Positions 27,938 to 44,426 of a DNA stretch of 64,000 nt are shown here, one piece after another. This stretch comes from Candidatus Zipacnadia bacterium (lineage in GTDB: Bacteria; Armatimonadota; Zipacnadia; Zipacnadales; UBA5352): NCBI GenBank assembly GCA_029820945.1, contig JALGUJ010000003.1, forward strand, positions 6,873 to 70,872, written 5' to 3'. A model generated the notes under the pieces. The model saw nothing but the letters and a program-made list of their open reading frames with translations, made no database searches and had not been told where the DNA came from. Both the position numbers and the translations under genes were made by a program. The stretch's first letter is position 1. Each line of letters starts with the position of its first letter.

Positions 27938-28133
27938 GGCGCGGCACCTCCAATGACTCACGTGCAGCTCACGTCTGTGGCTTCGCCCGCCGAGCGCCCG
28001 AGGCCTCCCGCGCGCATCAAGCGGCCGACTAAGCCAACCCCGCGGCCCTTCCCGCCTGCACGAGGCGTGCCGGGAGGAATGACGCAAGCCCGCGTGGAAT
28101 ATCAGTCCGACGCGTGCTGGGCGGCCGCGCAGC

Positions 28134-28808
28134 GTGGCGAAGCGGCGCGCGGTCAACCCGAAGGACCGCCGCACAAGGCGCCCCAATATGCCACAGAGCA
28201 AACAGGTACCCGACCCGACATTGCTGCGCATCTGCAGATACCTGCGCATCCTTGAGCGCGCTGAGGAGCCCACCATCTCCTCGGCGGCCATCGCGGAAGC
28301 GGCCGGCGTCAACGCCGCGCAGGTGCGCAAGGACCTCTCGTTCTTCGGCGAGTTCGGCCAGCCCGGCGTGGGCTATGACGTCGAGCAGCTTCACGCCTCG
28401 CTCAAGCAGTTGATGGGGCTCGACCGCGAGCGGGAGGTCGTCGTGGTCGGCGCGGGCGCGCTGGGCTCGGCGCTGATCAACTACCCCGGCTTCCGGGAGC
28501 GCGGCTTCCGGGTCGTCGCGGTCTTCGACAACAACCCGGCGAAGGTCGGACACCGGCTCCGCGGCTACGAGGTCATTGCCTTCGACCGCCTGGCCGACAC
28601 CATCGCCGACGAGCATGTGAGCATCGGGATCATCGCCGTGCCGCGCGCCGCTGCGCAGGACGTCGCTGATGCGCTTATTGGCGCGGGCGTGATGGGGATC
28701 CTCAACTTCGCTCCGATCACGCTGAAGGTCCCCGACGAGGTCACCGTGCGCAACGTGGACCTGACCCTCCAGCTCGAGACCCTCTCCTACCACCTCGAGG
28801 TGGACTGA
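28134..28808 (+). CDS. rex: Redox-sensing transcriptional repressor Rex
   Basis: ISS...AQVRKDLSFFGEFG..GVGYDV wHTH; VVVGAGALGSAL Rossmann fold; GILNFAP. The start may be ATG 28188. Confidence 0.95.
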   Translation: MAKRRAVNPKDRRTRRPNMPQSKQVPDPTLLRICRYLRILERAEEPTISSAAIAEAAGVNAAQVRKDLSFFGEFGQPGVGYDVEQLHASLKQLMGLDREREVVVVGAGALGSALINYPGFRERGFRVVAVFDNNPAKVGHRLRGYEVIAFDRLADTIADEHVSIGIIAVPRAAAQDVADALIGAGVMGILNFAPITLKVPDEVTVRNVDLTLQLETLSYHLEVD

Positions 28809-28814
28809 CCGGCC

Positions 28815-30761
28815 TCACACCAGCAGCACCGCGTAGGTGTCAACATCGAGCACGTTGAGGGAGCCATCGCGGATGGCCTCGGTCCGCACATGCTCGTCGG
28901 GCGTCAGCAGCTCCATGTCAGGCCAGTATGGCTTCAGCCAGACGGCCAGGCGGATGTTGATCGGTGCGGCGCGATTGGTGTTGGCGTAGTTGAGCAGGTG
29001 GACGGCTATGCGGTCGTCGAGGGTGCGGTACGCGCCGACGCCGATGTACTCCCCCGCCGAAGCGACGACGGGAAGCCCGCGTGGAAGCGCGCGCAAGACC
29101 ACGGTCTCGATCTCCTCGTGCGCCTCCGGCAGGTAGGGGTAGAGCGGGCTCACCCTCCCCTCAGGTCCGGCGGGCGCGCGCTCGGGAGCGTTGGGCAGGT
29201 GGACGACGCGCTCGTGATCGTAGAGGTCCGCCAGGGCATCCACCGGGCGCTCGCGGTAGTGCTCGTCGAAGCGCCCCGGCTCTCCGGTGAGGAGCAGCAC
29301 CCCGCCGCCGTCGAGGTGCGCACGCAGCGCGGCGACCTCCGCGTCGCTCAGCAGCCGCTGGTTCGGCACGCAGAGCAGCTCCACGTCGAACTCCGTGCCG
29401 CCCTCGATCCCCAGGATCACGTCGAACGGGATCTGATGCTGCAGCAACACCTGCTCGAGGCCCTGCAGGTGGGCGAGGGCGATCTCGCGGTCAAAGTCGC
29501 AGGACGCGGGCGCGTAGAAGACGCCCACGTTCGCCAGCGACCTCGAGCCGACGTAGAGCTCCTCGTGCTCGGCGAGGAAGGTCATGTACCGGCGCAGAGC
29601 CGGGCCGCGCTGCGGGTCCTGGTAGAGCGTCCGGCCCTCTCTCCCCCAGGGCCGGTTGGCCCAGGTGGCGGGGAAGGGGTGGCCGCCGTAGCAGGCCGAC
29701 TCGGCGATGGAGAGCTTGACCTCCTGCGGGGTCTGCGGCGCGCGGTAGCCGCTCTCGTCGCGGATCCACGCCGTCACGAAGGTCGGCACATCCAGCGCCG
29801 AGCACTGCTTGATGTGGCGAGCGCAGCAGACCAGCCGCCCGTCCTCCTCGACCCGCGGCATCTCGTGGCTCTCCGAGGTCGCCAGGTCGAGGTAGTCGCC
29901 GACCCAGGGCATGATGCGATCGCGGTCCGGCCGGCTGAGCTGGGGGGCGTGCGGGTAGGTCGCGAAGATCGCGTCCTCCTTCACGGACTTGGCGTGCGCG
30001 TAGAGCTGGCGCAGGCGCCGGTGCATGGTCTCGCAGCGGAAGTGCAGCCATGCCTGATACATGGGATCGCGGCCGGCGATGTGTGGCGGCGGCAGCGCGT
30101 GGTCGAAGTGCGGCAGGCCGAACAGCTCGCGCTCCCGGCCCTCGTAACGCTCGCGCAGGAACTGTCTGAACGCCGCCACGCAGCGGTCGCAGTAGCACGA
30201 GTAGGTGGTCCCGTCCCACTCGACGCCGTCGAGGCCGACCTCGGTCAGCCCATGCGTGATGACGCGCTTGAGGTAGTCGATGAAGGTGTCGCTGGTCAGG
30301 TCGCCCTGCCAGCGGAAGTAGCCGCTCCCCCCGTAGTAACGTCGGGCGCCGTCGGGGCCGTACTGCACGTGGCTCTCCAGGTCCAGGATCTCGTCCAGCA
30401 TCGCCTCGGGGTAGACGGTGGTCATCTGGCAGTAGCCGAGCACGTGGATGCCGTGCGCATGGCAAAGCTCCACCAGCTCTCGCGCGCGCTCCTGCTGCTC
30501 GACCTCGGCCTGCAGGCCGAAGCCCTTGTAGTAGTGCGTGGTGATCAGGTTGATGCCCATCTCGGCCATCGCGGAGACGTGCTCCTCGGAGTGCAGGTAG
30601 TCCCACCATGCCGGCGCCCAGATCGCCCGTCCGTTGACGCCACCCGAGGTGCTGCCGGCGCGCACGTACATCTCCGGCGGCTCCCATCCGCCCCACGCCC
30701 AGCGGATCCTGCCGCGCTCGAACCAGTCCGGCAGCCGTCCCGGCTTCGTCCACGACTCCAT
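28815..30761 (-). CDS. Putative glycoside hydrolase (TIM barrel + beta-galactosidase trimerisation-like domain)
   Basis: ELVELCHAHGIHVLGY, GLDGVEWDG, CYCDRCVAAFR, ANVGVFY, HQIPFDVI, RIAVHLLNY. Confidence 0.6.
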   Translation of the reverse strand: MESWTKPGRLPDWFERGRIRWAWGGWEPPEMYVRAGSTSGGVNGRAIWAPAWWDYLHSEEHVSAMAEMGINLITTHYYKGFGLQAEVEQQERARELVELCHAHGIHVLGYCQMTTVYPEAMLDEILDLESHVQYGPDGARRYYGGSGYFRWQGDLTSDTFIDYLKRVITHGLTEVGLDGVEWDGTTYSCYCDRCVAAFRQFLRERYEGRERELFGLPHFDHALPPPHIAGRDPMYQAWLHFRCETMHRRLRQLYAHAKSVKEDAIFATYPHAPQLSRPDRDRIMPWVGDYLDLATSESHEMPRVEEDGRLVCCARHIKQCSALDVPTFVTAWIRDESGYRAPQTPQEVKLSIAESACYGGHPFPATWANRPWGREGRTLYQDPQRGPALRRYMTFLAEHEELYVGSRSLANVGVFYAPASCDFDREIALAHLQGLEQVLLQHQIPFDVILGIEGGTEFDVELLCVPNQRLLSDAEVAALRAHLDGGGVLLLTGEPGRFDEHYRERPVDALADLYDHERVVHLPNAPERAPAGPEGRVSPLYPYLPEAHEEIETVVLRALPRGLPVVASAGEYIGVGAYRTLDDRIAVHLLNYANTNRAAPINIRLAVWLKPYWPDMELLTPDEHVRTEAIRDGSLNVLDVDTYAVLLV

Positions 30762-30922
30762 CGTGATGGCCTCCTCGGCACGCTCTAAGTCGCAACACAG
30801 TCACGAGCCCCATTTCCGCGCCGGCAGGCCCGATTCCTGTCATTGTCGGCTCGCCGGCAGGGATGCGTGAGCCGACGCGAGAATACTGGCGCAACTTCAT
30901 CACGCTGCGAGGTCGTGGGATC

Positions 30923-33900
30923 ATGTCGCGTCTCACGCGATGGTTGGGGCTACTGGTCGCGCTCTCGTTGTGCTCGCCGCTTCGCGCGCAGGGCGAGCAG
31001 GTGCTGGCGAACCCGGGCTTCGAGCAGCTCGACGACGCCGGCCGACCGTCCGGCTGGCAGGTGGACGAGGGCCTGCAGGTGCTGGGCGGAGCGGACGTGG
31101 TCGGCGGCGAGCACGCGGTTCGCGTCCGCTACCAGAGCGGCCTGCGGCAGGATCTGAGGGTCCAGGCGGGTGAGATCTACCGCATTGAGGGCTCCACGCG
31201 TCGCCCGCCGGGCGAGGCGCCACTGACCGGGCGTGTCCTGATCCGCTGGCTCGACGATGACGGCGCGAAGGTCAGGGGCAACACGGACTACCACCACACC
31301 GCAGGCACCGAGTGGGCGCGCTTCACGCACATCATCTCCATCCCCGACGGCTGCACGCACATTCACCTCGTGGTCGATGGCCCCTACCAGACCGCGGACT
31401 GGTTCGACTTCGACGAGCTGAGCATGGTGCGCACCAGCCGGCTGGCCTCCATCGACACGCGGGCTCTTGAGGCGTGCAGCAGGCCCCTGAGGGCCGTGCG
31501 CGTTGCCGACTGCGGTTCCTTCGCGCTGCTCCGACTTCCCGGGTCGATGGAGGCGCCCTACGACGGCAAGGTGGAGACCTTCGCCACCATGAGCCCATAC
31601 GTGGAGCGCCCCAACCCGCACACCGAGGTGGACTTCGACTTCACCTTCCACCGGCCCGAGGAGGTCGACCTCTGCCTGATCCACACCGTCGCCGATCCTC
31701 TCGAGCGCGCGACCCTTCTCGCGGACGTTGACGGCCGGTGGCGCGAGGTCGCACGCATCGAGAACGGTCTGCGCACGCTGCTGGCGGCCAGCTTCGACCC
31801 GGTCGAGACCCGGTGCATGCGACTGCGCATCCACAAGCGGCCTGAGGATGAGACCATCAGCCTCAATGAAGTGCAGTTCTTCGGGCCTGGGACCGGGGGA
31901 ATCGACGACCTGGCGGCGCTGCAGCGGGCCCAGGCGCCGCCCCAGGACTTCGCCGAGGTGCTGGAGCACGCGAGCGGCTCGGGCGGGCCCGCCGCTGTCG
32001 CGGTCGAGGGTGGCGGTGGCGGGGAGGTGGACCTGCGGGCCGGTCACACGGTGGAGATACTGCTGCCGCGAGCGGAGACAGAGGTCGGCCTTGATCGAGT
32101 GGCGGCCAGCCTGGCCTGTGAGGGCAGTGAGCCGGGCCGCGCCGTCGAGGTCGCGCTGATGTCGCCGAATACCCGGGACCGGAACATCCGCTCCATCCAC
32201 CTCGGGGACCGCGTGCTGACGGGGAGGCACGCTCGAGGGCTGAGCGCGCCGCCGAACATCGACCTGCGGGCGTTGGCGCGCATCGTGGTGCCCCTCGTTC
32301 CGGGCGAGCAGAACGCAGTGGCCAGCATCGACGTGGACATTCCGGACATGATCGTCCGGCCGGGCGAGCGCGTGTGGCTGCGCGTCACGCCGCTGCAGGA
32401 TGAGACGGTGCTGCTGGACGAGAGCGGCGCCGCTGCGGTGGAGATACCCGCAGAAGAGGCGCTCCCGGAGTACCTGCCCGACCTGGAGCGCATTCTGCGG
32501 CGCGCCTACGCGCAGTGCTCCGAGGCGCACGTGTACGACGGCGCGCAGGGCATGCGCGAGGCGATGGCCCTGGTGCGGCTGCTACGCGAGGTGCAGGCGC
32601 TCGACCCCGACAACGAGGCCGCGCGCAGGATCGAGCACCGCATCTTCCGCACGCGCGAGCGCGTCGAACTCGAACGCCCCGGGCCCGTCGACGCGCCGGA
32701 CTGGGCGGTCTGGCAGCGCAGGCTCCTGCAGGAGTACACGCGGATCGTGCACTGGTGGATCGACACCCGCCAGATCTCGACTGGGGAGCTGGGCGGGGCG
32801 TGGGCGGACGATACTGAGCTGTCATGCGAGTGGGCCTTCCTGCCGCTGGCGACCGGGGACGAGAAGGTGCGGGACTCGCTGGCGCTGGTCGCGGAAGGGG
32901 TCTGGAAGGTCGTCGGCGAGGGCGGCTACAGCCCTCGCACGATGGACGCCGAGCACGCGGCGGAGTACGTGACGCTCTCGCAGCCGCAGATGATGCTCCT
33001 CGATTACGGGGACCCCCTGTACATCGAGCGCTGCATGCGCATGATCAAGCACATGGAGTGGTGGACGCTCATCAACGAGCAGGGGCACCGCCACTTCCGC
33101 TCGTACATGTTCAACGCGACCTCAATCGACGACAGCGAGGGCCATGACTTCGACCACGTGCACACCGCCTACGCGGCCAAGCCCGGCTTCTACGCCGCGT
33201 GGTACTCGGCGAACGAGCAGCCGCGCGGATGGCTGACCGAGTGGGCGTGGGGCTGGCACGCGGCGGCGATGAGCACAGACAAGGGCAAGCCCGCAGGCGC
33301 CATCCCGTACGACGTGCACGCGAGGACCGGTGAGATCGCGCCGTACACCGACCGCTGGGACCGCAGCGCCTACATGAACGACGGCCTCAGCCAGGTGAAG
33401 GACCTCTTCATCGGCGCGTGGGACTGGACGGGCGATCCGGCCGTCCTTGAGCCTCTCCGCTACCATCAGGGCGGCGGGCGCGCCGCGGACATGACATGGC
33501 GCATGCTCTCGGGCGATACGGCTCGCGACGAGCAGATCATCGAGAGCGCCGAGCGGATGATCGAGGAGAACCAGAGGCTGAACGGGAGCGATGAGGAGAA
33601 CTCGTGGTCGGCCTACAACATGTACAGCGAGCTCCGCTACTACTGGGCCTGGTGGGCGACCGGCGAGATGCGGTATCTGGTGGAGGGCCTGCAGGAGCAG
33701 TGCCGCAACATCGAGCGGATGCGCTGGCTCATCACCGAGGCCGAGCCCTACACCGACCGGGCGTACATCCCCGGCGACCGCCTGCTCCCCTTCATGATGC
33801 TGGGCGGCAGCGCGGGCGAGGTGCGCGCGACCTACCCCGACCTGGCGGTGAGCTGGGAACGGCTGTGGAGGCGGGAAGAGCCGCAAGCCCGGCTCCGGGA

Positions 33901-34501
33901 GGGCACCGGCACCGACGTCGCAACGCTCGTCACCGAGCGCACGGCCGAGGCATTCACCGTGCTGGCGCACTCCTTCGCGGACGCACCCCTCGCCGTGGTC
34001 ATGCGCACCTGGAGCGTCCCCGCGGGGCACTGGGCGGTCACGCTCGGGATCGATACGGACGCGGACGGATTCGCAGACGAGACGCTCGGCGAGCGCCACG
34101 TCGAGCTGTTCCGCTATGCGGCGCTGCCGATCACGCTCCGGCCTGGTGTCACGACGGTCATTACGGCACGGCTGATCGAGCCCGGCGAGGACATCAGGGC
34201 CCGAGCGGACCTCGCGATCTCCGAGCGCGACCTTCGACGCGAGGGCGATCAGATCGCGGTCACCGTGCACAACATCGGGGCGAGCGACGTGCCTGCGGGT
34301 GTGCAGGTCGTCGCCGAGGATGCCGACGGTCGGGCAGTCGAGACCATCACTCTCCCGGCGATCCCGGCGCCGGTCAGATGCGTTCCGAGCACGGTCGAGG
34401 TGCGACTCGGGGCCGCGAAGCTCGCCCGGATCAGGCTTGATGCGGACGACACCGTGCCTGAGATCACTGAGTGCAACAACGAGCTGGCGGTCAGACCGTA
34501 G
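30923..34501 (+). CDS. Large secreted protein (N-terminal CBM4/9-like, putative alpha/alpha catalytic core, C-terminal CARDB)
   Basis: Signal peptide; LANPGFE; GELGGAWADD; C-terminal ADLAIS...VTVHNIG...EITECNN. Confidence 0.65.
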   Translation: MSRLTRWLGLLVALSLCSPLRAQGEQVLANPGFEQLDDAGRPSGWQVDEGLQVLGGADVVGGEHAVRVRYQSGLRQDLRVQAGEIYRIEGSTRRPPGEAPLTGRVLIRWLDDDGAKVRGNTDYHHTAGTEWARFTHIISIPDGCTHIHLVVDGPYQTADWFDFDELSMVRTSRLASIDTRALEACSRPLRAVRVADCGSFALLRLPGSMEAPYDGKVETFATMSPYVERPNPHTEVDFDFTFHRPEEVDLCLIHTVADPLERATLLADVDGRWREVARIENGLRTLLAASFDPVETRCMRLRIHKRPEDETISLNEVQFFGPGTGGIDDLAALQRAQAPPQDFAEVLEHASGSGGPAAVAVEGGGGGEVDLRAGHTVEILLPRAETEVGLDRVAASLACEGSEPGRAVEVALMSPNTRDRNIRSIHLGDRVLTGRHARGLSAPPNIDLRALARIVVPLVPGEQNAVASIDVDIPDMIVRPGERVWLRVTPLQDETVLLDESGAAAVEIPAEEALPEYLPDLERILRRAYAQCSEAHVYDGAQGMREAMALVRLLREVQALDPDNEAARRIEHRIFRTRERVELERPGPVDAPDWAVWQRRLLQEYTRIVHWWIDTRQISTGELGGAWADDTELSCEWAFLPLATGDEKVRDSLALVAEGVWKVVGEGGYSPRTMDAEHAAEYVTLSQPQMMLLDYGDPLYIERCMRMIKHMEWWTLINEQGHRHFRSYMFNATSIDDSEGHDFDHVHTAYAAKPGFYAAWYSANEQPRGWLTEWAWGWHAAAMSTDKGKPAGAIPYDVHARTGEIAPYTDRWDRSAYMNDGLSQVKDLFIGAWDWTGDPAVLEPLRYHQGGGRAADMTWRMLSGDTARDEQIIESAERMIEENQRLNGSDEENSWSAYNMYSELRYYWAWWATGEMRYLVEGLQEQCRNIERMRWLITEAEPYTDRAYIPGDRLLPFMMLGGSAGEVRATYPDLAVSWERLWRREEPQARLREGTGTDVATLVTERTAEAFTVLAHSFADAPLAVVMRTWSVPAGHWAVTLGIDTDADGFADETLGERHVELFRYAALPITLRPGVTTVITARLIEPGEDIRARADLAISERDLRREGDQIAVTVHNIGASDVPAGVQVVAEDADGRAVETITLPAIPAPVRCVPSTVEVRLGAAKLARIRLDADDTVPEITECNNELAVRP

Positions 34502-34642
34502 CTGGCCGCTTCGGCCCCCGGCCTTTCGCTGTGGCCCCGATCCGGTTATCATGAGCCTGTCCGCCCGTCGGCGCCGCCGCGTAGAGCTCTCGCCTGCTCC
34601 TGTGGGTCGCCGACCCGATTGCTTCTGGTCCCGGCTGATGCC

Positions 34643-36493
34643 ATGAAACGAATCATCGTCGCCAACTCCGCACTCGCCTACCCCCCGCCACCCGAGAGTG
34701 TCCTGCAGCCGGGCGACGCTGTGCTGCCTCTGGTCGAGCGCTTCGAGGACGCCCTGTTCATGTCACTGCCCGGCTACGAGCTGCAGGAGCGCTTCCCCGA
34801 GTGGAACCTGGAGGTGCGGGCGCTGGCGAGGTCGCTGGGCGATCTGCTGCCCGAGTGGGTGACCCGTCCCGTGCCGGCCTGGGGGCACTCGGCATGGGAC
34901 ACCGCGGTGGATCACTTCGTCAAGTACTCCCTCGGGCCCATCCTCTGCAACGCCGAGCTTGCCCGCCAGGCCGCGCGCAACGAACCGGACGAGGTGGTGG
35001 CGTGGGAGCTGCCGCATCGTGCCGGCTGGTGGTCGGGGCGCGAGCTGGTCGCCGACGTCGCGCACGCCATAGCAGCCGAGTCCGGCGCACACCTCGAGCT
35101 GCGCACTGCGAGCTGGCGACGGGCCGTGCGGGATCTGGTCCAGCCCGGCCTCTCCCTGGCGCATGGGATCGGCTACTTCCGCCGCGCGAGGTCGGCTCCG
35201 GGGCCCGAGCCCACTGAATGCGACGTGCTCATCGCGATCACCGGGCCCACGGTCGTGCCGTTGTTCGACCGGGTGGCTCGTAGGCTGCAGGACGAGCACG
35301 ACCTGCGCGTGCAGGGCATCGACGTGCCGATCGAGGGGCCGGGCGCGATGATCCGTGAGGGTGAGCTCCCGCGCGCGAGTCTGCATGCGCTGCTCGACGG
35401 TGGCCTTCTACGCCGGGGCGCGATGGACGCCGTGGCCGGAGCGCGCACGACTGGAGGCCTGAGCCGGGCGCTGGCGGGGTTCGAGCCGCTGCGCGACCTC
35501 CCGGCGCCCCTGCGATCGGCGCTGGTCAGACGGCTGCGCGCGACGCTGGCGCGCACCGTCCCCGAGTGCCTGCTGCACGCCCGGCTGTGGGAGCGCGCGC
35601 TCGACGCCGCGCGCCCCTCGGTGTTCGCGGGTTACAACGCCTACGGCGTGCCCCTGGCGCCGGGGGTGCTGCAGGCGCGCCATCGCGGCATCCCGGCGGT
35701 GATGCTCCAGCACGGGATGTTCGGCACCTACTTCAAGGCCGGGGCCCTGCTACCATATGACGAGCTCATGGTCCTCGGCCCATACGCACGCGAGGTACTC
35801 GCCCCGCTTGCGAGCCGCCACACGAGCTTCTTTGAGACGGGCCACTCCCAGTTCGACGATCTTTGCCAAGAACCAGAGCTGGGGCGCGAAGCGGCTGCGT
35901 TGCGGAAAGAGCTTCTGAAGGAACACAAGCACCTCGTACTCGCGACCACCCAGCCCATCGAGGTGCGCCTGCGAGAGAACGAGTCACGCTGGTGGCTGGA
36001 GCTGCTGGGGGAAGCGTGTCGCGGCGAGCAGGCACTGCTGGCCATAAAGCCCCATCCAGACGAGAATGCCATGCTGGTGCACTACCGAGAGATCGCCGAG
36101 CGCATGCCCGATACGGTGCGCGTGATTCGCCACGGAGAGGTGCCACTGAGGCTCTTGATCGCGGCATGCGACCTGCTTGCAACCAGGTTCTCAACGACAG
36201 CAGTGGAGGCCGCGCTGCTCAGCACGCCCGTCATGACGGTGAACCTCGGCGGCGGGGCCGATCGGTATCCCTACGTTGACGAAGGTGCTGCCGAGGGCGT
36301 ATACTCGCCCCAGGAGATGTACCCTACGTTGCACAGGCTGCTATCCGAGCCCCAGGCCCGCCGAGGTCTGATCGCGGGCCAACGACGGTTCCTCGACCGC
36401 CACCTCGGGTTTCGGGATGGCAGAGCCACCGAGCGCATCGCCTCCCGTATCGCCCTTTGGGCCGGAGGCAAGGGCTCGACCCGACAAGGGTGA
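34643..36493 (+). CDS. GT-B fold surface-glycan protein (CDP-glycerol glycerophosphotransferase/capsule biosynthesis-like)
   Basis: MLQHG, ETGHSQFD, LATTQP, IKPHP, CDLLATRFSTTAVEAALL, DGRATERI. Confidence 0.7.
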   Translation: MKRIIVANSALAYPPPPESVLQPGDAVLPLVERFEDALFMSLPGYELQERFPEWNLEVRALARSLGDLLPEWVTRPVPAWGHSAWDTAVDHFVKYSLGPILCNAELARQAARNEPDEVVAWELPHRAGWWSGRELVADVAHAIAAESGAHLELRTASWRRAVRDLVQPGLSLAHGIGYFRRARSAPGPEPTECDVLIAITGPTVVPLFDRVARRLQDEHDLRVQGIDVPIEGPGAMIREGELPRASLHALLDGGLLRRGAMDAVAGARTTGGLSRALAGFEPLRDLPAPLRSALVRRLRATLARTVPECLLHARLWERALDAARPSVFAGYNAYGVPLAPGVLQARHRGIPAVMLQHGMFGTYFKAGALLPYDELMVLGPYAREVLAPLASRHTSFFETGHSQFDDLCQEPELGREAAALRKELLKEHKHLVLATTQPIEVRLRENESRWWLELLGEACRGEQALLAIKPHPDENAMLVHYREIAERMPDTVRVIRHGEVPLRLLIAACDLLATRFSTTAVEAALLSTPVMTVNLGGGADRYPYVDEGAAEGVYSPQEMYPTLHRLLSEPQARRGLIAGQRRFLDRHLGFRDGRATERIASRIALWAGGKGSTRQG

Positions 36494-39415
36494 ATGGCTG
36501 CGATGGGATCGACGCGCGAGACTCTCAAGGTGCTCATCGCACGCGTTTGTGGCGACTTGATGCCGGACGCCGTCCCAGACGAGGCCCGACTGGGCGATCC
36601 GGCTCAATGGGATTCGCTGGCACACGTCGCACTGATGACGCTTATAGAGGAGACCTTCGGCAGGCCCGTCGGCCCGGTGGAAATGGCGGGCCTGACATCA
36701 CTTGAGGAGATTGAGCGCTGGCTCGCACGCGCGAGCGGCGCGGAGGTGTCCTCGCCGGCGCCGACGAGGCCTGAGGTCGCTGACGCGCTCCGGTCCGTCG
36801 GCCTCGCGGCAGGGGACCTGGTGATGGTGCATGCCTTCACTGCCGCGCTGGGCATCACAGCGCGCGCAGACCGCGTCCTTATCGACGCGTTGCTCGACGT
36901 CCTCGGTCCCGAACGCACACTGGTACTGCCTGCATTCACCTACTCGTTCTGCCAAACAGGGATCTTCGAGCCTGATCGTTCACCGTCTGAGGTCGGCATC
37001 GCGGCCGACACGCTCCGTCGGGAGTACTCCGGCCTGCGCAGCCGGTGTCCTATCTTCTCCGTCGTGGCGGTCGGACCGCTCGCGCCTGAGATCGGCGCGC
37101 TGCGTCCCGAGACGACCTTCGGTCCGGACAGCATCTTCGGCCTGATGCTGGAACGGCAGGGGAAGCTCTGCGCCATCGGTGTTGGCTATGACCGGGTCAC
37201 CTTCAACCACTACGTCGAGGAGGAGCTGCAAGTCCCCTACCGCTACTGGAAGCGGTTCGAGGGGGTAATCAGGAGTGGTGGGAGGGACGAACCGGTTGGC
37301 GTCGATTACTACGTGCGAAGCCTCGATCCTGAGGCCGAGCAGGACTTCATGCCGGCACATCGGCTGGTGTCGGGCCAGAGCTTCTCAGGACATGCGACGG
37401 TGGGCGGCGCGCAGATACACTGCGCTCCCGCTCAGGACTACCATCGTGTGCTCCGAGGCGCAATGGACGCAGACCCCCTGCTGTTGCTTACTCCTCAGGC
37501 CCGGCGGCACTGGGATGGCGACCAGGCCCCACGGAAGGTCGCGGGTCTACGCGACGACCCGGGCGACGCGCGCGATGAGTTCGCGACCGCCCGAAGGCTC
37601 GCGGAGGCGCTGGCCGCGGACGGTGAGCCCGCGGAGGCGCATCGGGTATTGGTCGAGGCCGCAGCAGCCGCGGGCGACTACGCGACGCTGACCGGCGCGT
37701 GCCGGTGGGCACGCAGACTCCTGCCCGTGGCAGAGGCTAACCAAGTCGCACCAGTGAAGGTGTCCTGGACGGGCTCGGCGACGCTCCATCCGCTCGCCGA
37801 GGCCTGTGAGACCTACGTTCGCGCCTCAGGGATCATACCCGAGACGATCGTCGGTGAGTTCGGCCAGTTCCGCGGGGAGTTGGCTGAAGCCGCAAGCGAT
37901 GCGGACGTGATCTTCGTACGGGTAGCACCGGAGGCGCTCCGGCCTGAGCTTGACGGATGGCGCTACGGTGGGGGCGATCCCCAGATCGCACGTGCTGCGG
38001 CGCGGGAGCTATGTGTGCTTGTGCAGCGGTGGCTCGAGGATTGCCAAGGACACGCGGTGATCCATCTGACGACGCCGTGGCACCACTCGGCGATGGGCCT
38101 CGCGGACAGCCAGCTCGCCGACGGGTCGCGGGCAGTCGCCGCCACGTTCAACACTGAGCTGGTGGAGTGCGCAGTTGACCATGTCCGGCTTCATGTGCTT
38201 GACGAGACGCCGGTGGTGCTCCAGACTCGCGGGCGCGCCTACGACGCGGACCTGTACTACCACGCGGGCATCGACCTGTCGGGGCCTGCGATCGCAGCGG
38301 TGGGGCGTGAGGCGGCGCGATTCGTTGTCGCGACGCGTCGGCCGCCGGTCAAGTGCATCGTGACCGACCTGGACAACACCCTATGGGGTGGAACAGTCGG
38401 TGAGGACGGCGTCAACGGCCTCTCACTCGCCGGCGAGTACCCTGGCGAGGCGCACCGAGAGCTGCAGCGCTGGCTGCTGGCGCATCACAGGGCCGGAATC
38501 TTGCTCGCGATCTGCAGCAAGAACGAGCGGTCGGACGGCCTGGCGCCCTTCCAGCAGCGTCCCGACATGATTCTGAGCCCCGAACACTTCGCGGCGATCA
38601 GCATCGACTGGCGCCCCAAGCCCAGCCGCATCCTGGAGATCGCGCAGGAGTTGAATATCGGCGTGGACTCGGTCGCATTCATCGACGACTCGCCCTTCGA
38701 GCGGGCGGCGGTGCGCGAGGCTCTGCCAGAGATCACCGTGCCCGAGCTGCCGCGGCACGTATCCCGGTGGATCGAGCATTTGTCCGAGCTCCACCTTTCC
38801 GACATGCTGCTCCTGACCGAGGAGGATCGGCGGCGGGCCTCGATGTACGCTGAGCAGCGCAAGCGAGAGCACCTCGCAGAGACCGTCGAGGACATGACGG
38901 CATTCCTGAACGGCCTCGGCAGCGTGGCGGCCCTGCATTTCGATGACCCGGCGATCGTGGCCCGGACGGCTCAGCTCTGCGCCCGGACGAATCAGTTCAA
39001 CCTCAGCTCGCGGCGTCACTCCGAAGGGCAGATCTCCCGGTTCATCGACGACGAGAGTGCCCGAGTCATCCAGATGTCCGCCGGCGACCGCTTCGGGGAA
39101 CTCGGCGTAGTCGGAATCGCTATTGTGCTCGGGGCCGGAGAGACCGCTGAGCTGGATACGTTGCTTCTGAGCTGCCGGGCACTTGGCCGAGGTCTTGAGC
39201 ACGCGCTGCTTTCGGAGGCCTGGCGTGTGGCGAGCGATGAGCTGGGGGCGACGACACTACTCGCACAGTGGCTCGACAACGGTCGCAACGGACAGGTGCG
39301 CGAGTTCATGGAGGCAGTTGGTGCACACGCGGAGCACGTGACGGGCGAGTCCGTCACCTACCGTATTGAGCGCCCTGTTGACTGGCCCGAGCACATCGAG
39401 CGCGCCGAGGCTTGA
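36494..39415 (+). CDS. Triple fusion: acyl carrier protein + AAC(3)-family N-acyltransferase + FkbH (HAD-IIIC) glyceryl transferase/phosphatase
   Basis: ACP WDSLAHV; AAC(3) VMVH, TLVLPAFTYSF, SEVG, TFNHYVEE, VPYRYWK; FkbH KCIVTDLDNTLWGG, CSKN, FIDDSPFER, RTNQFN, LLSCRALGR. Confidence 0.88.
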   Translation: MAAMGSTRETLKVLIARVCGDLMPDAVPDEARLGDPAQWDSLAHVALMTLIEETFGRPVGPVEMAGLTSLEEIERWLARASGAEVSSPAPTRPEVADALRSVGLAAGDLVMVHAFTAALGITARADRVLIDALLDVLGPERTLVLPAFTYSFCQTGIFEPDRSPSEVGIAADTLRREYSGLRSRCPIFSVVAVGPLAPEIGALRPETTFGPDSIFGLMLERQGKLCAIGVGYDRVTFNHYVEEELQVPYRYWKRFEGVIRSGGRDEPVGVDYYVRSLDPEAEQDFMPAHRLVSGQSFSGHATVGGAQIHCAPAQDYHRVLRGAMDADPLLLLTPQARRHWDGDQAPRKVAGLRDDPGDARDEFATARRLAEALAADGEPAEAHRVLVEAAAAAGDYATLTGACRWARRLLPVAEANQVAPVKVSWTGSATLHPLAEACETYVRASGIIPETIVGEFGQFRGELAEAASDADVIFVRVAPEALRPELDGWRYGGGDPQIARAAARELCVLVQRWLEDCQGHAVIHLTTPWHHSAMGLADSQLADGSRAVAATFNTELVECAVDHVRLHVLDETPVVLQTRGRAYDADLYYHAGIDLSGPAIAAVGREAARFVVATRRPPVKCIVTDLDNTLWGGTVGEDGVNGLSLAGEYPGEAHRELQRWLLAHHRAGILLAICSKNERSDGLAPFQQRPDMILSPEHFAAISIDWRPKPSRILEIAQELNIGVDSVAFIDDSPFERAAVREALPEITVPELPRHVSRWIEHLSELHLSDMLLLTEEDRRRASMYAEQRKREHLAETVEDMTAFLNGLGSVAALHFDDPAIVARTAQLCARTNQFNLSSRRHSEGQISRFIDDESARVIQMSAGDRFGELGVVGIAIVLGAGETAELDTLLLSCRALGRGLEHALLSEAWRVASDELGATTLLAQWLDNGRNGQVREFMEAVGAHAEHVTGESVTYRIERPVDWPEHIERAEA

Positions 39416-39457
39416 GCACAATGTGAGCGAGCATACGGCCGGGCCCCGGGAGGCCAG

Positions 39458-40732
39458 ATGGTGATCGACCTCATCCGACGCGTATATCCGCTTAACCGCG
39501 CACTGGTATCTGACGACTACGACCGCGCGCTACAGATCGTGGGCGAGCGCCTGGAGATGACGGTTCACGAATACCCCTCCGGAGAGCAGTGCTGGACATG
39601 GCGAATTCCGCAGAAGTGGACAGTCAATGAAGCCTGGGTCGAGGCTGAGGGCGAGCGCATCATCGACTTCGCCGACCATCCGCTCCACCTCTGGACGGGA
39701 TCGCTGCCGGTGGACATGATGGTTTCGCGGGAGGAGCTTGTCGAGCATCTCGCGTGGCAGGAGGATCTTCCCGACGCCATCCCGTACCGCTTCAACTTCT
39801 ACCAGCTGACATGGGGCTTCTCGATCTCCTACCGGCAACTGCGCACCCTGGAAGCCGACCAGTATCACGTCTACATCGACACGGAGTACTCGGACGGCTA
39901 TCTCAAGGTGGGGGAGGCGACTGTGGAGGGCGAGTCTGACGAGGTGGTCGTGTTGATGGGACACCTCGACCACCCCGCTCAGGCGAATGATGGGCTGTCG
40001 GGGGTTGCGGTAGGCGTCGAGCTGATGAACTGGCTGCGCGAGCGTGACAACCACTACACGTACACCTTCCTGGTCCTCCCGGAGACCATCGGCTCAATCG
40101 CGTTCTTCAGTCACAACATGGACATCATCCCGCGCTGCCGCTGCGGCATATTCCTCGAGATGATGGGCAATGAAGGCCAGTTCGCCCTGCAGCACTCCCG
40201 GCAGCACGATGACTTCATCGACCGGGCCGCGCGGCGTGCTCTGATCGATCGCTTCGGAGAGGGCAACTTCAGCGAGGGCGCATTTCGGCAGGTCGTTGGC
40301 AATGATGAGATGGTGCTGAACGGGCCGGGCCTGAACGTCCCCACCGTGTCCATCTCCCGCTGGCCCTACCCGCAGTACCACACGCAGTTCGATAACCTCG
40401 ACATCATCTCCAAGGAGCGCCTGGAGGAATCACGCGACGTCATCAAGGATATCATCGGCATCGTGGAGCGCGACTTCGTCCCCCGACGGAAGTTTACCGG
40501 CCCTATCTTCCTGTCCGGCTACGGACTCTGGGTTGACTATAGCGACAACTTCGCCCTTAACCGCGCCATCGAGCAGGTCATGCTCTCCCTCGAAGGCGAC
40601 CAGAGCATCCTGGACATCGTGGATAAGACGAGCGTGACCTACGACGAGATCTACGACTTCGTGCAGCGCACCGTGGACCTGGACCTCGCCGAGTCCATCG
40701 GTCGAGGCGCCGACCTCGACCGGCCGGACTGA
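39458..40732 (+). CDS. DUF4910/DUF2172 family M28-peptidase-like protein with C-terminal wHTH
   Basis: PSGEQCWTWRIPQKW, PDAIPY, WGF, HLDHPAQANDGLSG, PETIGSI, YPQYHT..DN. Confidence 0.85.
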   Translation: MVIDLIRRVYPLNRALVSDDYDRALQIVGERLEMTVHEYPSGEQCWTWRIPQKWTVNEAWVEAEGERIIDFADHPLHLWTGSLPVDMMVSREELVEHLAWQEDLPDAIPYRFNFYQLTWGFSISYRQLRTLEADQYHVYIDTEYSDGYLKVGEATVEGESDEVVVLMGHLDHPAQANDGLSGVAVGVELMNWLRERDNHYTYTFLVLPETIGSIAFFSHNMDIIPRCRCGIFLEMMGNEGQFALQHSRQHDDFIDRAARRALIDRFGEGNFSEGAFRQVVGNDEMVLNGPGLNVPTVSISRWPYPQYHTQFDNLDIISKERLEESRDVIKDIIGIVERDFVPRRKFTGPIFLSGYGLWVDYSDNFALNRAIEQVMLSLEGDQSILDIVDKTSVTYDEIYDFVQRTVDLDLAESIGRGADLDRPD

Positions 40733-40884
40733 CCACGACCCGCATCGCCAGCCACCTCGCCCACCTCGCCGCGCCGCCGGCCGACTGATCCGCCACCGCC
40801 GTCGTCTCTGCGGAGGCGGCCCCGCTCCGGGCGACGAAGTCCCACGTGAACCGGGCTATCCGCAGTGCCGACGGAGTGATCGAC

Positions 40885-43245
40885 GTGAATGGCCTGAGAT
40901 CGGCTGCGATGCTCAGCCTCGTGCTGCTCGCGGCAAGCGCCGCGCTCGCCGTCACCGTGGTCGCCCCCGGAGAGGAGCCGCTGCCCGTCGTGCTCGCATC
41001 CGACGCCATCCCCGCCGAGCAGACCGCGGCGGAGGAGCTGGCGTCCTACCTCGGACGCATCGCGGGCCGCGAGTTCGAGGTCATCGTTGAGGGAGAGGTC
41101 GGCGACGGAGCCGGCATCTTCGTCGGCCCGACCGCGCGCGCGGCCGAGCTGGGCATCGACCACCGTGCGCTCGGGCCGGAGGAGTGGGCGGTCCGGACTG
41201 CCGGCGACGACCTGATCGTGGCCGGCGGGCGGCCGCGCGGCACGCTCTACGCCGCCTACCACCTGCTCGAGGATGTGCTGGGCGTGCATTGGTGGACGCC
41301 CTGGGACGAGAGCGTTCCGAGCATCCCGACGATCGACCTCGGCGAGCTCGATCTGCGCGGAGAGCCCGTGCTGCAGTACCGCGACATCTACCGCGTCTAC
41401 GGCTATGACGAGGGCCGGTTCGCCGCGCACAACCGGCTGAACCGCATGGGCGACCCGCCGATACACGCGCGGTACGGCGGGGGCATGGACTACGGACCGC
41501 CCTACCACGTGCACACGTTCTATCTCTACTTCCCGCCCGACCAGTACTTCGAGGATCACCCCGATTGGTACTCGCTCATCGACGGCAAGCGCAACGCGGA
41601 GCGCAAGCAGCTCTGCCTGACCAACCAGGAGCTGCGCGAGGCGTTCCTGGGGAAGCTCCGGGCCTTCATCGAGGAGAGCCGCAAGCAGGCGGCCGAGCGC
41701 GGCGGCCCGCCCCCTCGCGTGTTCTCGGTCTCGCAGAACGACTGGCGGGGCGCCTGCCAGTGCGAGAGCTGCCAGGCCATCGTTGAGCGCGAGGGCTCCG
41801 AGGCCGGACCGCTGCTGGACTTCGTGAACTTCCTCGCGGACGGGATCGCGGAGGACTACCCCGACGTCTACCTGAGCACGCTGGCGTACCAGTACACCCA
41901 GCAGCCGCCGACGAGCATCCGCCCGCGCGAGAACGTCATCGTGCGCCTGTGCGACACCACGAGCACATTCACGCGCGCCATCACCGACCCCGAGAACGAG
42001 CAGTTTCGCGACATTCTGCTCTCGTGGGCGGAGATTGCGGACAACCTGCGCATCTGGGACTACGCGGTGACCTACGCCCGGCCCCGCGGACTGCCGATGC
42101 CGAGCGTGCAGACCTACGGGCCGGACTTCCGCTTCTACGCCGAGCACAACGTCGAGGGCGTCTTCACGGAGCTGGAGTTCCCGGTCAGGGCGGACATGCG
42201 CGACCTGAAGGTCTGGATGATGTGCAAGCTCCTCGAGGACCCGTACGCCGACTACGATGGGCTGCTGGCGACCTTCACCGAGGGCTTCTACGGCCCCGCC
42301 GGGCCGATGGTCCGGGAGTATCTGGCCGCGCTGCAGGCCGCCTCCGAGGCCCGTCCGAGTCACATCAGCATGGGCGCGTCGCTGCCGTCGTACGGCACCT
42401 ACCTGACGCTCGAATTCGTGCGGCACGCGCACGCGATCTTCGACCGCGCCGAGGCGGCGGTGGCGGACGAGGAGACGCTCCTGCAGCGCGTTCGCCACGC
42501 CAGGATGCCGCTCGACCGCGCGACGGTGATGCTGGCGCGGCCGCTCTCGCGCGAATGGGTGCAGCGGGGGAACGACCCGGCGGAGCTGCCCTTCGAGCGC
42601 CAGGCCATCGGCGAACGCTACAGCGCAACGTGGCTGGCGGAGGTGGAGCGGCGGCTGCCCGAGTCACAGCGCGCGCAGTCGCGGGCCGAGCTGGAGGAGG
42701 AGTTGACGCGATACACGGCGCTGCCCGAGTTCGTACCGCTGCCGGAGAAGTTCGCCGACGTGCCGCCCGAGCGCGTCTTCGACTTCACCGCGGATCAGTC
42801 GCGGAACTGGAAGGACATCGTGAAGGTGGTGCGCGACGAGGAGGCGGAGAGCGGGATCACCAACCGGCTTCAGTTCCCCACGGCCATCGACACCGAGAAG
42901 CATCCGGTCGAGCGCTACGAGCTGCCCATGCCCTGGGGCCTGTACGACGTGCGCAACAAGAAGGGGCGAGCCAGCGCCCAGATCAGGGCCGAGGACGTCC
43001 CCGGGCCGGGCTATCACTGGTACCGGATGGGCAGCTTCGAGATCGGGCCCTCCTACTACCTGTACTTCTTCTGGAGCTGGATCATCCAGGTAGACATCGA
43101 CTCCGCGTGGGACGCCGAAAGGCCCGACCGGGAGTTCGAGATCTGGGCGCGGATCAAGTTCGAGGGGCCGGCCTTCCCGCACGGTGACGAGGCCGACGCG
43201 AACGCCATCTGCGTGGAGCGCGTGGTGCTGGTGGGGCAGGAGTAA
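40885..43245 (+). CDS. Secreted DUF4838-domain protein (putative glycoside hydrolase)
   Basis: GTG at 40885 after GGAG; signal peptide; AAEELASYL, RGTLYAAY...LGVHWWTP, HTF, HPDWYSL, QLCLTN, SVSQND, TLAYQYT, IWDY. Confidence 0.8.
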   Translation: MNGLRSAAMLSLVLLAASAALAVTVVAPGEEPLPVVLASDAIPAEQTAAEELASYLGRIAGREFEVIVEGEVGDGAGIFVGPTARAAELGIDHRALGPEEWAVRTAGDDLIVAGGRPRGTLYAAYHLLEDVLGVHWWTPWDESVPSIPTIDLGELDLRGEPVLQYRDIYRVYGYDEGRFAAHNRLNRMGDPPIHARYGGGMDYGPPYHVHTFYLYFPPDQYFEDHPDWYSLIDGKRNAERKQLCLTNQELREAFLGKLRAFIEESRKQAAERGGPPPRVFSVSQNDWRGACQCESCQAIVEREGSEAGPLLDFVNFLADGIAEDYPDVYLSTLAYQYTQQPPTSIRPRENVIVRLCDTTSTFTRAITDPENEQFRDILLSWAEIADNLRIWDYAVTYARPRGLPMPSVQTYGPDFRFYAEHNVEGVFTELEFPVRADMRDLKVWMMCKLLEDPYADYDGLLATFTEGFYGPAGPMVREYLAALQAASEARPSHISMGASLPSYGTYLTLEFVRHAHAIFDRAEAAVADEETLLQRVRHARMPLDRATVMLARPLSREWVQRGNDPAELPFERQAIGERYSATWLAEVERRLPESQRAQSRAELEEELTRYTALPEFVPLPEKFADVPPERVFDFTADQSRNWKDIVKVVRDEEAESGITNRLQFPTAIDTEKHPVERYELPMPWGLYDVRNKKGRASAQIRAEDVPGPGYHWYRMGSFEIGPSYYLYFFWSWIIQVDIDSAWDAERPDREFEIWARIKFEGPAFPHGDEADANAICVERVVLVGQE

Positions 43246-43272: not shown

Positions 43273-44426
43273 ATGTACAACCCGTTCGGCAAGCCTGTGG
43301 ATGAGTTGACTGAGGACGATCTGCTGCAAACGCTACCCGGTAAGCGTGAGAGCTGGATCTACGAGTATAAGGGCCCTGACAAGCTCAAGGACATGAAGAG
43401 CATCCCCGGTCCATAGCTTCGTTTGCGAACTGGCACGGGGGCTGGCTATTCATCGGCATAGAGGAAGGGGAGGACGGAGAACCGGTGCTCGCTGACATTC
43501 AGGGCATCCCGGCTGACGAGCAATGCCTCTCAGAACGTGTGTACCAGACATGTCATTCCAATCTCTCTCCTGCCCCGTACGTGAGCTGTGGCGAGATCCG
43601 ACTTAGCTCTGGGCACTGGGTGCTCGCGATCCACATCCCGCAGAGCCCGAACCCGCCCCACATCATGATGAGCAGCGGAAGAGTACACGTGCGCTCAGGC
43701 AACACGACGAACCCCGTTAGCGTGGTCAAGGACCGCGGTGAACTTGACAGGCTCTATGAAAGAGCACGTGAGAACAGGGAAGGAGTCCAAGCGCTGCTCG
43801 ACGCGCACGGAAGGGGTAGGAGCTTCCTTGAGGAGGTGGTTCAGAACGCTCGCCGCTATCAGCAGGAGGAGATCACGCCCATTGCAGCTTTCTGCCTCCT
43901 CGCCTACCCTGAGACCCGCCTACCAGAGCTCCTCGCGTTCTCGTCAGCGATTCCCCCGACTACAGACATCGCGAACCGCATCTTCAACGAGGCAGACGAG
44001 CCAGCACGAAGCTGGGCCAGGTACGTTGGTGGGACCGGCAGCACGAAGTGGCTGGACCACCATCGCTGTCAAACGATCAGCGCCCGATTCGGTAGCTTGT
44101 TCTATGTTGATCGCTTTGGCCAGGTTGCCCATGCCCAGTTCACCGCGATGCTGCACGCCCTCACAGGCAGCCCGGACCCCATATGTGCTCAGGAATGCGC
44201 CGATCAGCTAGAAGGTTTCGCTGCGGGGGTTGAATTCGTGTACCGCGAATGGGGCTACCTCGGGCCTGTAACGCTGATGTGTCGCATGCAACTTGCAGAC
44301 GGAAGTCAACGCCCGCCTGTCCAGTTTAGCGCGGCTGCACTGGAATTGGCAGACACGGCAAGATGCATCCACAACGACGTCTTGCGTGACCTGCGACGAC
44401 TCGCGGGCCTGAATGACGTCGGATAG
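43273..44426 (+). pseudogene. Schlafen AlbA_2 domain protein, frameshifted near 43404-43408
   Basis: ATG 43273 after GGAGGGG gives MYNPFGKPVDELTEDDL...RESWIYEYKG...KSIPGP* (stop at 43416). Adding one base in ATCCCCGG continues as RSIASFANWHGGWLFIGIEE, the AlbA_2 motif, into the 43485..44426 ORF. Confidence 0.8.

Follow-up and report, generated by a model that had tools for sequence, protein, structure and literature searches.

A gene trio with a single-chain ACP-AAC(3)-FkbH protein as a candidate module for N-acyl exchange on an amino sugar in an Armatimonadota genome

What is the task of a single polypeptide which unites an acyl carrier protein (ACP), an acyltransferase with the fold of the aminoglycoside 3-N-acetyltransferases, AAC(3), and a complete FkbH enzyme, when its gene is wedged between those for a GT-B-fold protein and a DUF4910 protein? 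The question is raised by positions 34643-40732 of a 64,000-nucleotide stretch of DNA from Candidatus Zipacnadia bacterium (hereafter the window; positions 6,873 to 70,872 of contig JALGUJ010000003.1, assembly GCA_029820945.1). The best available interpretation is that the three genes constitute a self-contained module for N-acyl exchange on an amino sugar, likeliest a nonulosonic acid or its nucleotide-activated form, followed by use of the product; we put its probability at roughly 60%. Established are the domain identities, the conserved catalytic residues, the conservation of the trio and the association of its parts with each other and, elsewhere, with NeuB-type synthases.

The window belongs to C82, one of the 203 contigs of a metagenome-assembled genome of 5.35 Mb (completeness 90.7%, contamination 7.4%, G+C about 69%). 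Three genes, all on the + strand, fill 34643-40732. P0001 (34643..36493) encodes a GT-B-fold protein of 616 amino acids (aa) counted from its ATG, a candidate cytidine monophosphate (CMP)-sugar-dependent glycosyltransferase. P0002 (36494..39415) is the 973 aa fusion, delineated by profile matches and full-length homologues. P0003 (39458..40732) encodes 424 aa of DUF4910/DUF2172/M28-like type, a candidate single-zinc amidohydrolase. The longest open reading frame (ORF) of P0001 opens at a TTG at 34619; the ATG at 34643 agrees with the conserved start, and M9 is nearly invariant among 23 homologues. P0002 opens with an ATG immediately after the TGA of P0001, and P0003 starts 42 nucleotides downstream of P0002, preceded by GGAGG. 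The tight, co-directional spacing put forward in the original prediction is therefore borne out. For two of the three proteins, every homologue with a name is labelled Armatimonadota.

The fusion protein P0002 can be dissected from end to end. Residues 1-85 (36494..36748, + strand, as are all features of the trio) are a predicted acyl carrier domain of the PP-binding type; the putative phosphopantetheine attachment site is Ser41 (codon 36614-36616) within the motif WDSL (36608-36619). Residues 93-345 (36770..37528) form the AAC(3)-fold N-acyltransferase domain. Antibiotic_NAT (PF02522) matches residues 111-321 with E 2.9e-31 and 109.3 bits against a gathering score of 25, and the motif TFNHYVEE (37199-37222) holds His239 and Glu242. 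A helical linker and an FkbH N-terminal domain follow (residues 346-615, 37529..38338); this segment corresponds to what stand-alone FkbH proteins have at their N-terminus, and the FkbH_N family is found in relatives. Residues 616-973 (38339..39412) are the FkbH core, i.e., a HAD-IIIC phosphatase with the acyl-enzyme part, which the FkbH model TIGR01686 covers from residue 619 to 946 (E 8.1e-79, 265.1 bits, cut-off 146.65). It contains DLDNT (38366-38380), the HAD DxDxT phosphatase motif, and LLSCRALGRG (39164-39193) with Cys894, which we take to be the acyl-enzyme cysteine of FkbH. All three domains and every motif cited in the original prediction are in place.

Conservation points to the same residues. 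His239 and Glu242 of the AAC(3) part are invariant in all 46 aligned fusion proteins and also in 9 of 9 relatives; D625, D627, T629 and C894 of the FkbH part are likewise invariant in 46 of 46. In the carrier part W39-D40-S41-L42 is unchanged in 9 of 9 relatives, and an AlphaFold model yields four helices (4-18, 41-55, 61-66 and 70-78) with Ser41 at the beginning of helix 2. The assignment of the N-terminus as a carrier domain is supported by this motif conservation and by the four-helix model. In the PDB the middle domain finds AAC(3) chains at E 5e-13 and weaker, FrbF among the matches, and the FkbH part finds 3slr at E 1e-38. An aminoglycoside-resistance enzyme was considered and rejected: the NCBIfam AAC(3) models (NF033082 and subtypes) score 45-78 bits against cut-offs of 270-675 (e.g., 77.6 versus 270), and judged by these family models the AAC(3) part of P0002 should not be named an aminoglycoside acetyltransferase.

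The concern, voiced together with the original prediction, that the fusion might be an assembly chimera is ruled out. A sister genome (G003) encodes an uninterrupted homologue of 938 aa in the same reading frame, and a collection of 5.8 billion proteins contains two more full-length fusion clusters of 969 and 970 aa with 59-61% identity. The homologues in two further genomes (G004, G015) are broken by contig ends only.

The third protein, P0003, had been described as an M28-like DUF4910 protein with motifs resembling metal ligands, and this description holds. DUF4910 (E 2.1e-66, 223.7 bits) and the inserted DUF2172 (E 3e-28, 98.5 bits) are both above cut-off, and Peptidase_M28 matches at E 2.2e-11. 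P0003 aligns to PDB 3k9t (CA_C2195 of Clostridium acetobutylicum) at E 1.9e-53, with H172, D178 and H308 falling on the zinc ligands His189, Asp195 and His324 as given for that structure (PMC4000134). Neither these three residues nor H169, E209, D283 and E284 vary in any of 27 diverse homologues. A scan of P0003 at E 0.01 gave no match to HTH_47 (PF16221), the C-terminal winged-helix domain of the family; the 3k9t alignment extends to chain residue 414, in the winged-helix part of that chain. A complex prediction of the DUF4910 protein with the AAC(3) domain gave a score of 0.00 against a mark of 0.32 and carries no weight either way. From its family and its conserved ligands P0003 is a candidate single-zinc M28-like deacetylase.

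For P0001 the GT-B fold that had been claimed is confirmed by an AlphaFold model (predicted local distance difference test score, pLDDT, 88.8) over residues 200-620. The protein carries the motif KPHPDE (36047-36064), in which H479-P480 is invariant, and D554-E555-G556 (36278-36286), a D/E-D/E-G motif. It thus combines the GT-B fold with the HP and D/E-D/E-G motifs as defined for CMP-sugar transferases by Tomek et al. (PMC5420450). P0001-like proteins occur in seven FkbH or DUF4910 loci (L168, L165, L152, L155, L175, L188, L082), and in two of these (L165, L168) the gene directly adjoins DUF4910. The count of 12 of 80 loci with such a transferase overstates the true relatives, as the P0001 profile also caught three fusions of a GT-B protein with a cytidylyltransferase. 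These WecB/PseG-like fusions (L130 15344-17458, L143 19312-21192, L154 10824-12668) belong to nonulosonate loci of uncultured bacteria and are not P0001-like. Fold and motifs make P0001 a candidate transferase of the modified sugar.

How constant is this arrangement? Among 41 related genomes, 18 of them from the same family, strong DUF4910 matches are present in 8 of the 18 same-family genomes; in each of them the GT-B gene comes first, the AAC(3)-type gene second and DUF4910 third. The middle gene comes in three grades. ACP-AAC(3)-FkbH is present in four genomes (G000, G003, G004, G015), a 340 aa ACP-AAC(3) protein in three (G009, G014, G017), and an AAC(3) protein of 255 aa stands alone in G006 and in metagenome locus L119. 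GT-B, AAC(3) and DUF4910 make up the invariant core; the carrier and the FkbH loader were either gained or lost, and they have the look of later gains by this older core. Because sister trios lack FkbH, or ACP and FkbH together, glyceroylation would be an extra on top of an acyl-exchange core of more general use; because the trio persists without FkbH or carrier, the acyl group would not always be glyceryl and the core could work without a carrier. Residues 86-250 of P0002 also match several more open frames per genome at about 27-39% identity, in its own genome (contigs C63, C11, C69, C115, C194) as well as in all 40 relatives that gave a match; by similarity these are presumably AAC(3)-fold paralogues.

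Elsewhere the same parts are met as separate genes. We analysed 80 DUF4910-centred metagenome loci with purpose-built profiles; 40 of them are at least 8 kb long. An AAC(3)-like gene is present in 37 of the 80 (22 of the 40 long loci), a NeuB-like gene in 27 (24), an ACP in 23 (18), a cytidylyltransferase in 15 (11) and FkbH in 13 (10). The AAC(3)-like gene mostly lies directly upstream of DUF4910, and seven loci (L128, L130, L133, L138, L143, L146, L154) display the order FkbH-ACP-AAC(3)-DUF4910-NeuB. Across the 80 loci the link between DUF4910, the AAC(3) fold, ACP, FkbH and a NeuB-type synthase is strong. In the window all four cassette parts are present and adjacent, three fused in P0002 and DUF4910 next to it. 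Judged by sequence comparison, the trio is a fused and reordered form of a widespread cassette of separate FkbH, ACP, AAC(3)-like and DUF4910 genes, often beside a NeuB-type synthase. When 80 genome loci were centred on FkbH instead, less sensitive single-sequence searches detected an adjacent ACP in 22, AAC(3) in 6, NeuB in 4 and DUF4910 in 2. No FkbH with an N-terminally fused AAC(3) was seen in these 80 loci; their search patterns were derived from the FkbH part and returned mostly stand-alone FkbH genes.

The company of the cassette was examined in nine FkbH-bearing loci (L133, which is short, and L147, a copy of L145, left out). Their 80 otherwise unassigned ORFs include 15 DegT, 7 methyltransferases, 6 CTP_transf_3, 6 ACPS and 5 PseB-type Polysacc_synt_2 proteins. 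B12-binding radical SAM proteins account for 11-12 of the 80; together with the methyltransferases they hint that the acyl group or the sugar is modified further. In eleven loci with AAC(3) and without FkbH (84 ORFs; the Armatimonadota-like L116 and L119 left out) five class-II aminoacyl-tRNA-synthetase-like proteins and three AMP-binding enzymes were found. These are candidates for alternative carrier loaders, which would supply aminoacyl or other acyl groups. Four loci have an AAC(3)-like gene of about 650 aa with an extra domain (L128 5580-7544, L145 8035-9999, L146 8047-10020, L147 8035-9999).

Is the single-chain form as unusual as was originally thought? In an exhaustive search of 1.84 billion representatives, which gave 16,842 matches at E <= 0.001, the best 150 were classified by domain. 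Fusion of AAC(3) to FkbH as such is common: 41 of the best 150 are two-domain AAC(3)-FkbH proteins of 812-867 aa, which speaks for coupled activities. Two more of the 150 (P0068, P0155) add an ACP at the C-terminus and one is a 340 aa ACP-AAC(3) protein. The three-domain order with the ACP first is rare; among the best 150 only the window's own cluster has it. A FastTree phylogeny of the FkbH parts (166 rows, local supports, midpoint rooting; omitting P0007, a copy of P0002, and P0028, which is devoid of FkbH) places the 43 AAC(3)-first proteins in one clade with support 99. The window's FkbH group is a separate clade outside of it with support 100; deep nodes of this tree are weak and its root is arbitrary. 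Because the window's FkbH clade is separate from the 43-member AAC(3)-first clade, the tree suggests a second, independent joining of AAC(3) and FkbH in the window's lineage.

Taken together the parts can be arranged into a pathway. In a first step the FkbH part would take glyceryl from 1,3-bisphosphoglycerate, remove the phosphate at the DxDxT site, hold the glyceryl on Cys894 and pass it on to the phosphopantetheine arm on Ser41 of its own carrier domain. In a second step the DUF4910 protein, as a single-zinc M28-like enzyme, would strip the sugar of an N-acetyl group. With its His239 and Glu242 the AAC(3)-fold domain would then move glyceryl from the carrier arm to the freed amine, and finally P0001, with its HP and D/E-D/E-G motifs, would move the modified sugar to a glycan or protein. 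FrbF acetylates a CMP-linked amine and would be a precedent for a nucleotide-linked acceptor.

Which known systems resemble this scheme? In the flagellin-glycan locus of Campylobacter jejuni NCTC 11168 the same parts are reported, i.e., the DUF4910-type Cj1295, an adjacent N-acetyltransferase gene and an fkbH-domain gene; the equivalence rests on the published descriptions. Cj1295, with an aminopeptidase-like domain, is needed for a 389-390 Da di-O-methylglyceroyl-pseudaminic acid, and in 2010 it was proposed to cleave the acetamido group so that glyceroyl can be added (Hitchen et al., 2010, PMC3068675). Its neighbor Cj1296/7 is given there as an N-acetyltransferase. The fkbH-domain gene is cj1302, and a strain in which cj1302 is a pseudogene is described as being without these sugars (Sacher et al., 2020, PMC7099621). 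The Campylobacter parallel drawn in the original prediction is thus confirmed by these reports; in a 2026 Campylobacter study cj1295 is still counted as a putative transferase whose role is unknown. In C. jejuni, according to these accounts, the genes are separate, they share a pseudaminic/legionaminic locus with transferases of the Maf type and the sugar made is O-methylated, whereas in the window three parts are fused.

A second parallel is provided by C. acetobutylicum, whose CA_C2195 (3k9t) is the solved homologue of P0003 and has comparable parts nearby. For CA_C2195-CA_C2199 a published table lists an aminosugar N-acetyltransferase, an ACP, a fusion annotated 'aminosugar N-acetyltransferase + HAD phosphatase' and a NeuB-type synthase (PMC4000134, Table 2). 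A role in the synthesis of a modified carbohydrate was proposed, and ordinary peptidase activity of CA_C2195 was doubted (Das et al., 2014, PMC4000134). The Clostridium fusion as listed there has two domains and a separate carrier protein; in contrast, P0002 possesses its own N-terminal carrier, and its FkbH falls outside the two-domain clade. For P0001 the closest known system is Tanf_01245/BFO_1060 of Tannerella forsythia, a GT-B/TagB-like transferase of an N-glyceroyl pseudaminic acid (Pse5Am7Gra) with HP and D/E-D/E-G motifs (Tomek et al., PMC5420450). P0001 shares both motifs, and its best NCBIfam match is the BFO_1060 family (NF046086); yet with 44.7 bits against a cut-off of 200 it is not a family member by this model, and about 200 residues at its N-terminus form an additional domain.

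The polyketide loaders FkbH, Mad7/Mad8 and Mad14/Mad12 have in common with P0002 the FkbH domain, DxDxT, the conserved cysteine and a carrier partner. Unlike them, P0002 would hand its unit to an amine through the AAC(3)-fold domain of its own chain, and the flanks scanned contain no ketosynthase or FabH-like match. With the AAC(3) resistance enzymes and FrbF P0002 shares the fold and the His/Glu pair; unlike the resistance enzymes it stays far below the family cut-offs, and its predicted donor is an acyl-carrier arm instead of acetyl-CoA.

Upstream of the trio lie a 1212 aa exported protein without a Pfam or NCBIfam match (30863-34501, + strand) and a 648 aa protein without a family match (28815-30761, - strand), downstream an exported DUF4838/GH67N-like protein with a signal peptide (40846-43245, + strand); all three are kept with the trio in relatives. 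Further out, with no evident link to the trio, are a Schlafen/AlbA_2-domain protein (43485-44426, + strand) and a 1551 aa ORF with a weak FG-GAP match only (23675-28330, - strand). Ten large ORFs between 22545 and 47829 were scanned, and no methyltransferase was found among the flanking ones.

As for the sugar, the original prediction called for a search of the genome for neuB, pse and leg genes, and the outcome is divided. On contig C61 a NeuB homologue is encoded next to a cytidylyltransferase, and by its gene content the genome can make a CMP-nonulosonate; no such gene was found beside the trio and no PseB-type gene in the genome. The C61 pair (L004 6313-8909) is followed by an ORF weakly similar to TadA/FlaI-type secretion ATPases, which may be a clue to the sugar-bearing structure. 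The genome further contains one AcpS-type activating enzyme and a flagellin gene; a Maf-type (MptE-like) transferase was not found in it. About 20 strong DegT/DnrJ/EryC1 aminotransferase matches, an unusually large amino-sugar set, are scattered across the genome. We considered and discarded two shortcuts. A clustered pseudaminic or legionaminic acid pathway was not found by these searches: there is no PseB-type match, Epimerase_2 is in a housekeeping context and the DegT paralogues are scattered. The presence of NeuB as such fails to tie the trio to nonulosonates, as NeuB is near-universal in the 41 relatives.

A number of these observations weigh against the proposed nonulosonate N-glyceroylation module and have to be faced together. 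With respect to the sugar, the ten ORFs scanned contain no nonulosonic-acid gene near the trio, and all three NeuB matches of the genome are on contigs other than that of the window. The C61 homologue reaches the cut-off of neither the NeuB nor the PseI model, and NeuB occurs in nearly all of the 41 relatives with or without a trio, i.e., it does not discriminate. A PseB-type dehydratase is missing from a genome which is 90.7% complete, and the sole Epimerase_2 gene sits among housekeeping genes. The nearest conserved neighbors (P0004, P0005 and the DUF4838 protein) are exported or unassigned glycan-type proteins. With respect to the acyl group, a search with the FkbH model found FkbH nowhere in the trio-bearing genomes G009 (97% complete), G014 (96%) and G017 (83%), and the trio of G006 is without the carrier domain as well as without FkbH.

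The individual proteins have their weak points, too. PP-binding (PF00550) matches residues 11-77 of P0002 with 20.2 bits, marginally below the gathering score of 20.8; scanning the N-terminal 94 residues alone gave E 7e-4, and a scan of the whole protein gave no match at E 0.01. Fold searches with P0001 returned UDP-GlcNAc 2-epimerases with Z 17 and transferases such as BshA, TagF and TarL with Z 15-16, so that by these model comparisons P0001 stands about as near to epimerases or hydrolases as to transferases. The matches of P0001 to BFO_1060 and to TIGR04396 (37.7 bits, cut-off 125) are far sub-threshold and confined to its C-terminal half. According to its authors 3k9t binds a single zinc, does not have the standard M28 catalytic set and is doubtful as a usual hydrolase (PMC4000134). 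Lastly, the AAC(3)-like Cj1296/7 is listed as out of frame in both flagellin variants, including the one which makes the glyceroyl sugar (PMC3068675, Table 1).

Of the alternatives the one which survives best retains the chemistry and changes the acceptor: instead of a nonulosonic acid, another N-acetylated amino sugar or a finished glycan would be acylated, perhaps tied to the exported neighbors. We consider this a minority view with about one chance in five's worth of plausibility, nourished by the want of nonulosonate genes on the contig and of a PseB-type gene, by the roughly 20 DegT-type genes, which point to a rich amino-sugar chemistry, and by the synteny of P0004, P0005 and DUF4838 with the trio in relatives. 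Such synteny within a single family may be plain inheritance. Moreover, P0003 is 45-52% identical to DUF4910 copies which adjoin NeuB in distant phyla, and this argues for one substrate class; the best family matches of P0001 are models of the nonulosonate-transferase type.

Less probable still is an explanation in which DUF4910 is not a deacetylase. AAC(3) would then acylate a free amine made by the pathway itself, e.g., on a 4-amino sugar intermediate, and DUF4910 would be responsible for thioester editing or hydrolysis, another amide-bond reaction or a scaffold. The single zinc, the non-standard active site and the trimer with a winged-helix interaction domain reported for 3k9t (Das et al., 2014, PMC4000134) would suit such a role. 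Our literature search, with subscription journals outside its scope, retrieved no activity report for DUF4910, nor any enzymology of Cj1295, of cj1297-cj1303 or of FkbH acting with nonulosonates. On the other hand, the invariance of H172, D178, H308, E209, D283 and E284 in 27 of 27 homologues fits a working metal site. DUF4910 adjoins AAC(3) even where ACP and FkbH are missing, which renders a role tied to the carrier unlikely, and the Cj1295 knockout is reported to lose the acyl-substituted sugar (PMC3068675).

Finally, that the fusion supplies a glyceryl-carrier for a polyketide or tetronate-type product, or that its AAC(3) part is a resistance enzyme unrelated to the carrier, is highly improbable: FkbH and carrier are indeed best known from polyketide pathways, in which glyceryl-S-carrier is formed from 1,3-bisphosphoglycerate (PMC7489565), and in structure the middle domain comes closest to aminoglycoside acetyltransferases, yet the ten ORFs scanned have no match to a ketosynthase, a FabH-like or another polyketide family, the resistance models remain far below cut-off as detailed above, and the AAC(3) part shares its chain with ACP and FkbH and is invariably the neighbor of DUF4910 and a GT-B gene.

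We return to the proposed N-acyl exchange on a nonulosonic acid and ask what is new. Both the cassette and the idea of a deacetylase have been published before as hypotheses. What is added here is the single chain with the ACP in front, seen in this lineage only and probably of separate origin, the series of three grades and the location away from nonulosonate genes; the supplementary neighborhood tables of PMC4000134 may already list ACP-first fusions. A more detailed scenario can be offered tentatively, with the odds clearly against it in its entirety: an older acyl-exchange core acquired its own carrier and subsequently its own FkbH loader, independently of the AAC(3)-FkbH proteins. As no nonulosonate cluster goes with the trio, its action may come late, on a CMP-sugar that is already complete, perhaps of the neuraminic type. 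If this were true, the product would be an N-glyceroyl sialic acid, which is not yet described, and a single polypeptide would make, carry and deliver an acyl group derived from glycolysis.

In pathogens such as Campylobacter and Tannerella the pseudaminic and legionaminic acids on flagella and S-layers bear N-glyceroyl and related N-acyl groups. For Tannerella the genetic basis of the N-glyceroyl group was called unknown and a 'major challenge' (Friedrich et al., 2017, PMC5378307). A single chain of 973 aa which is predicted to load, carry and transfer glyceryl is a convenient object for a direct test, and the three natural grades within one family provide the comparisons for what sets the acyl group. 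The main value of the trio is as a test object for this unsolved piece of bacterial glycobiology.

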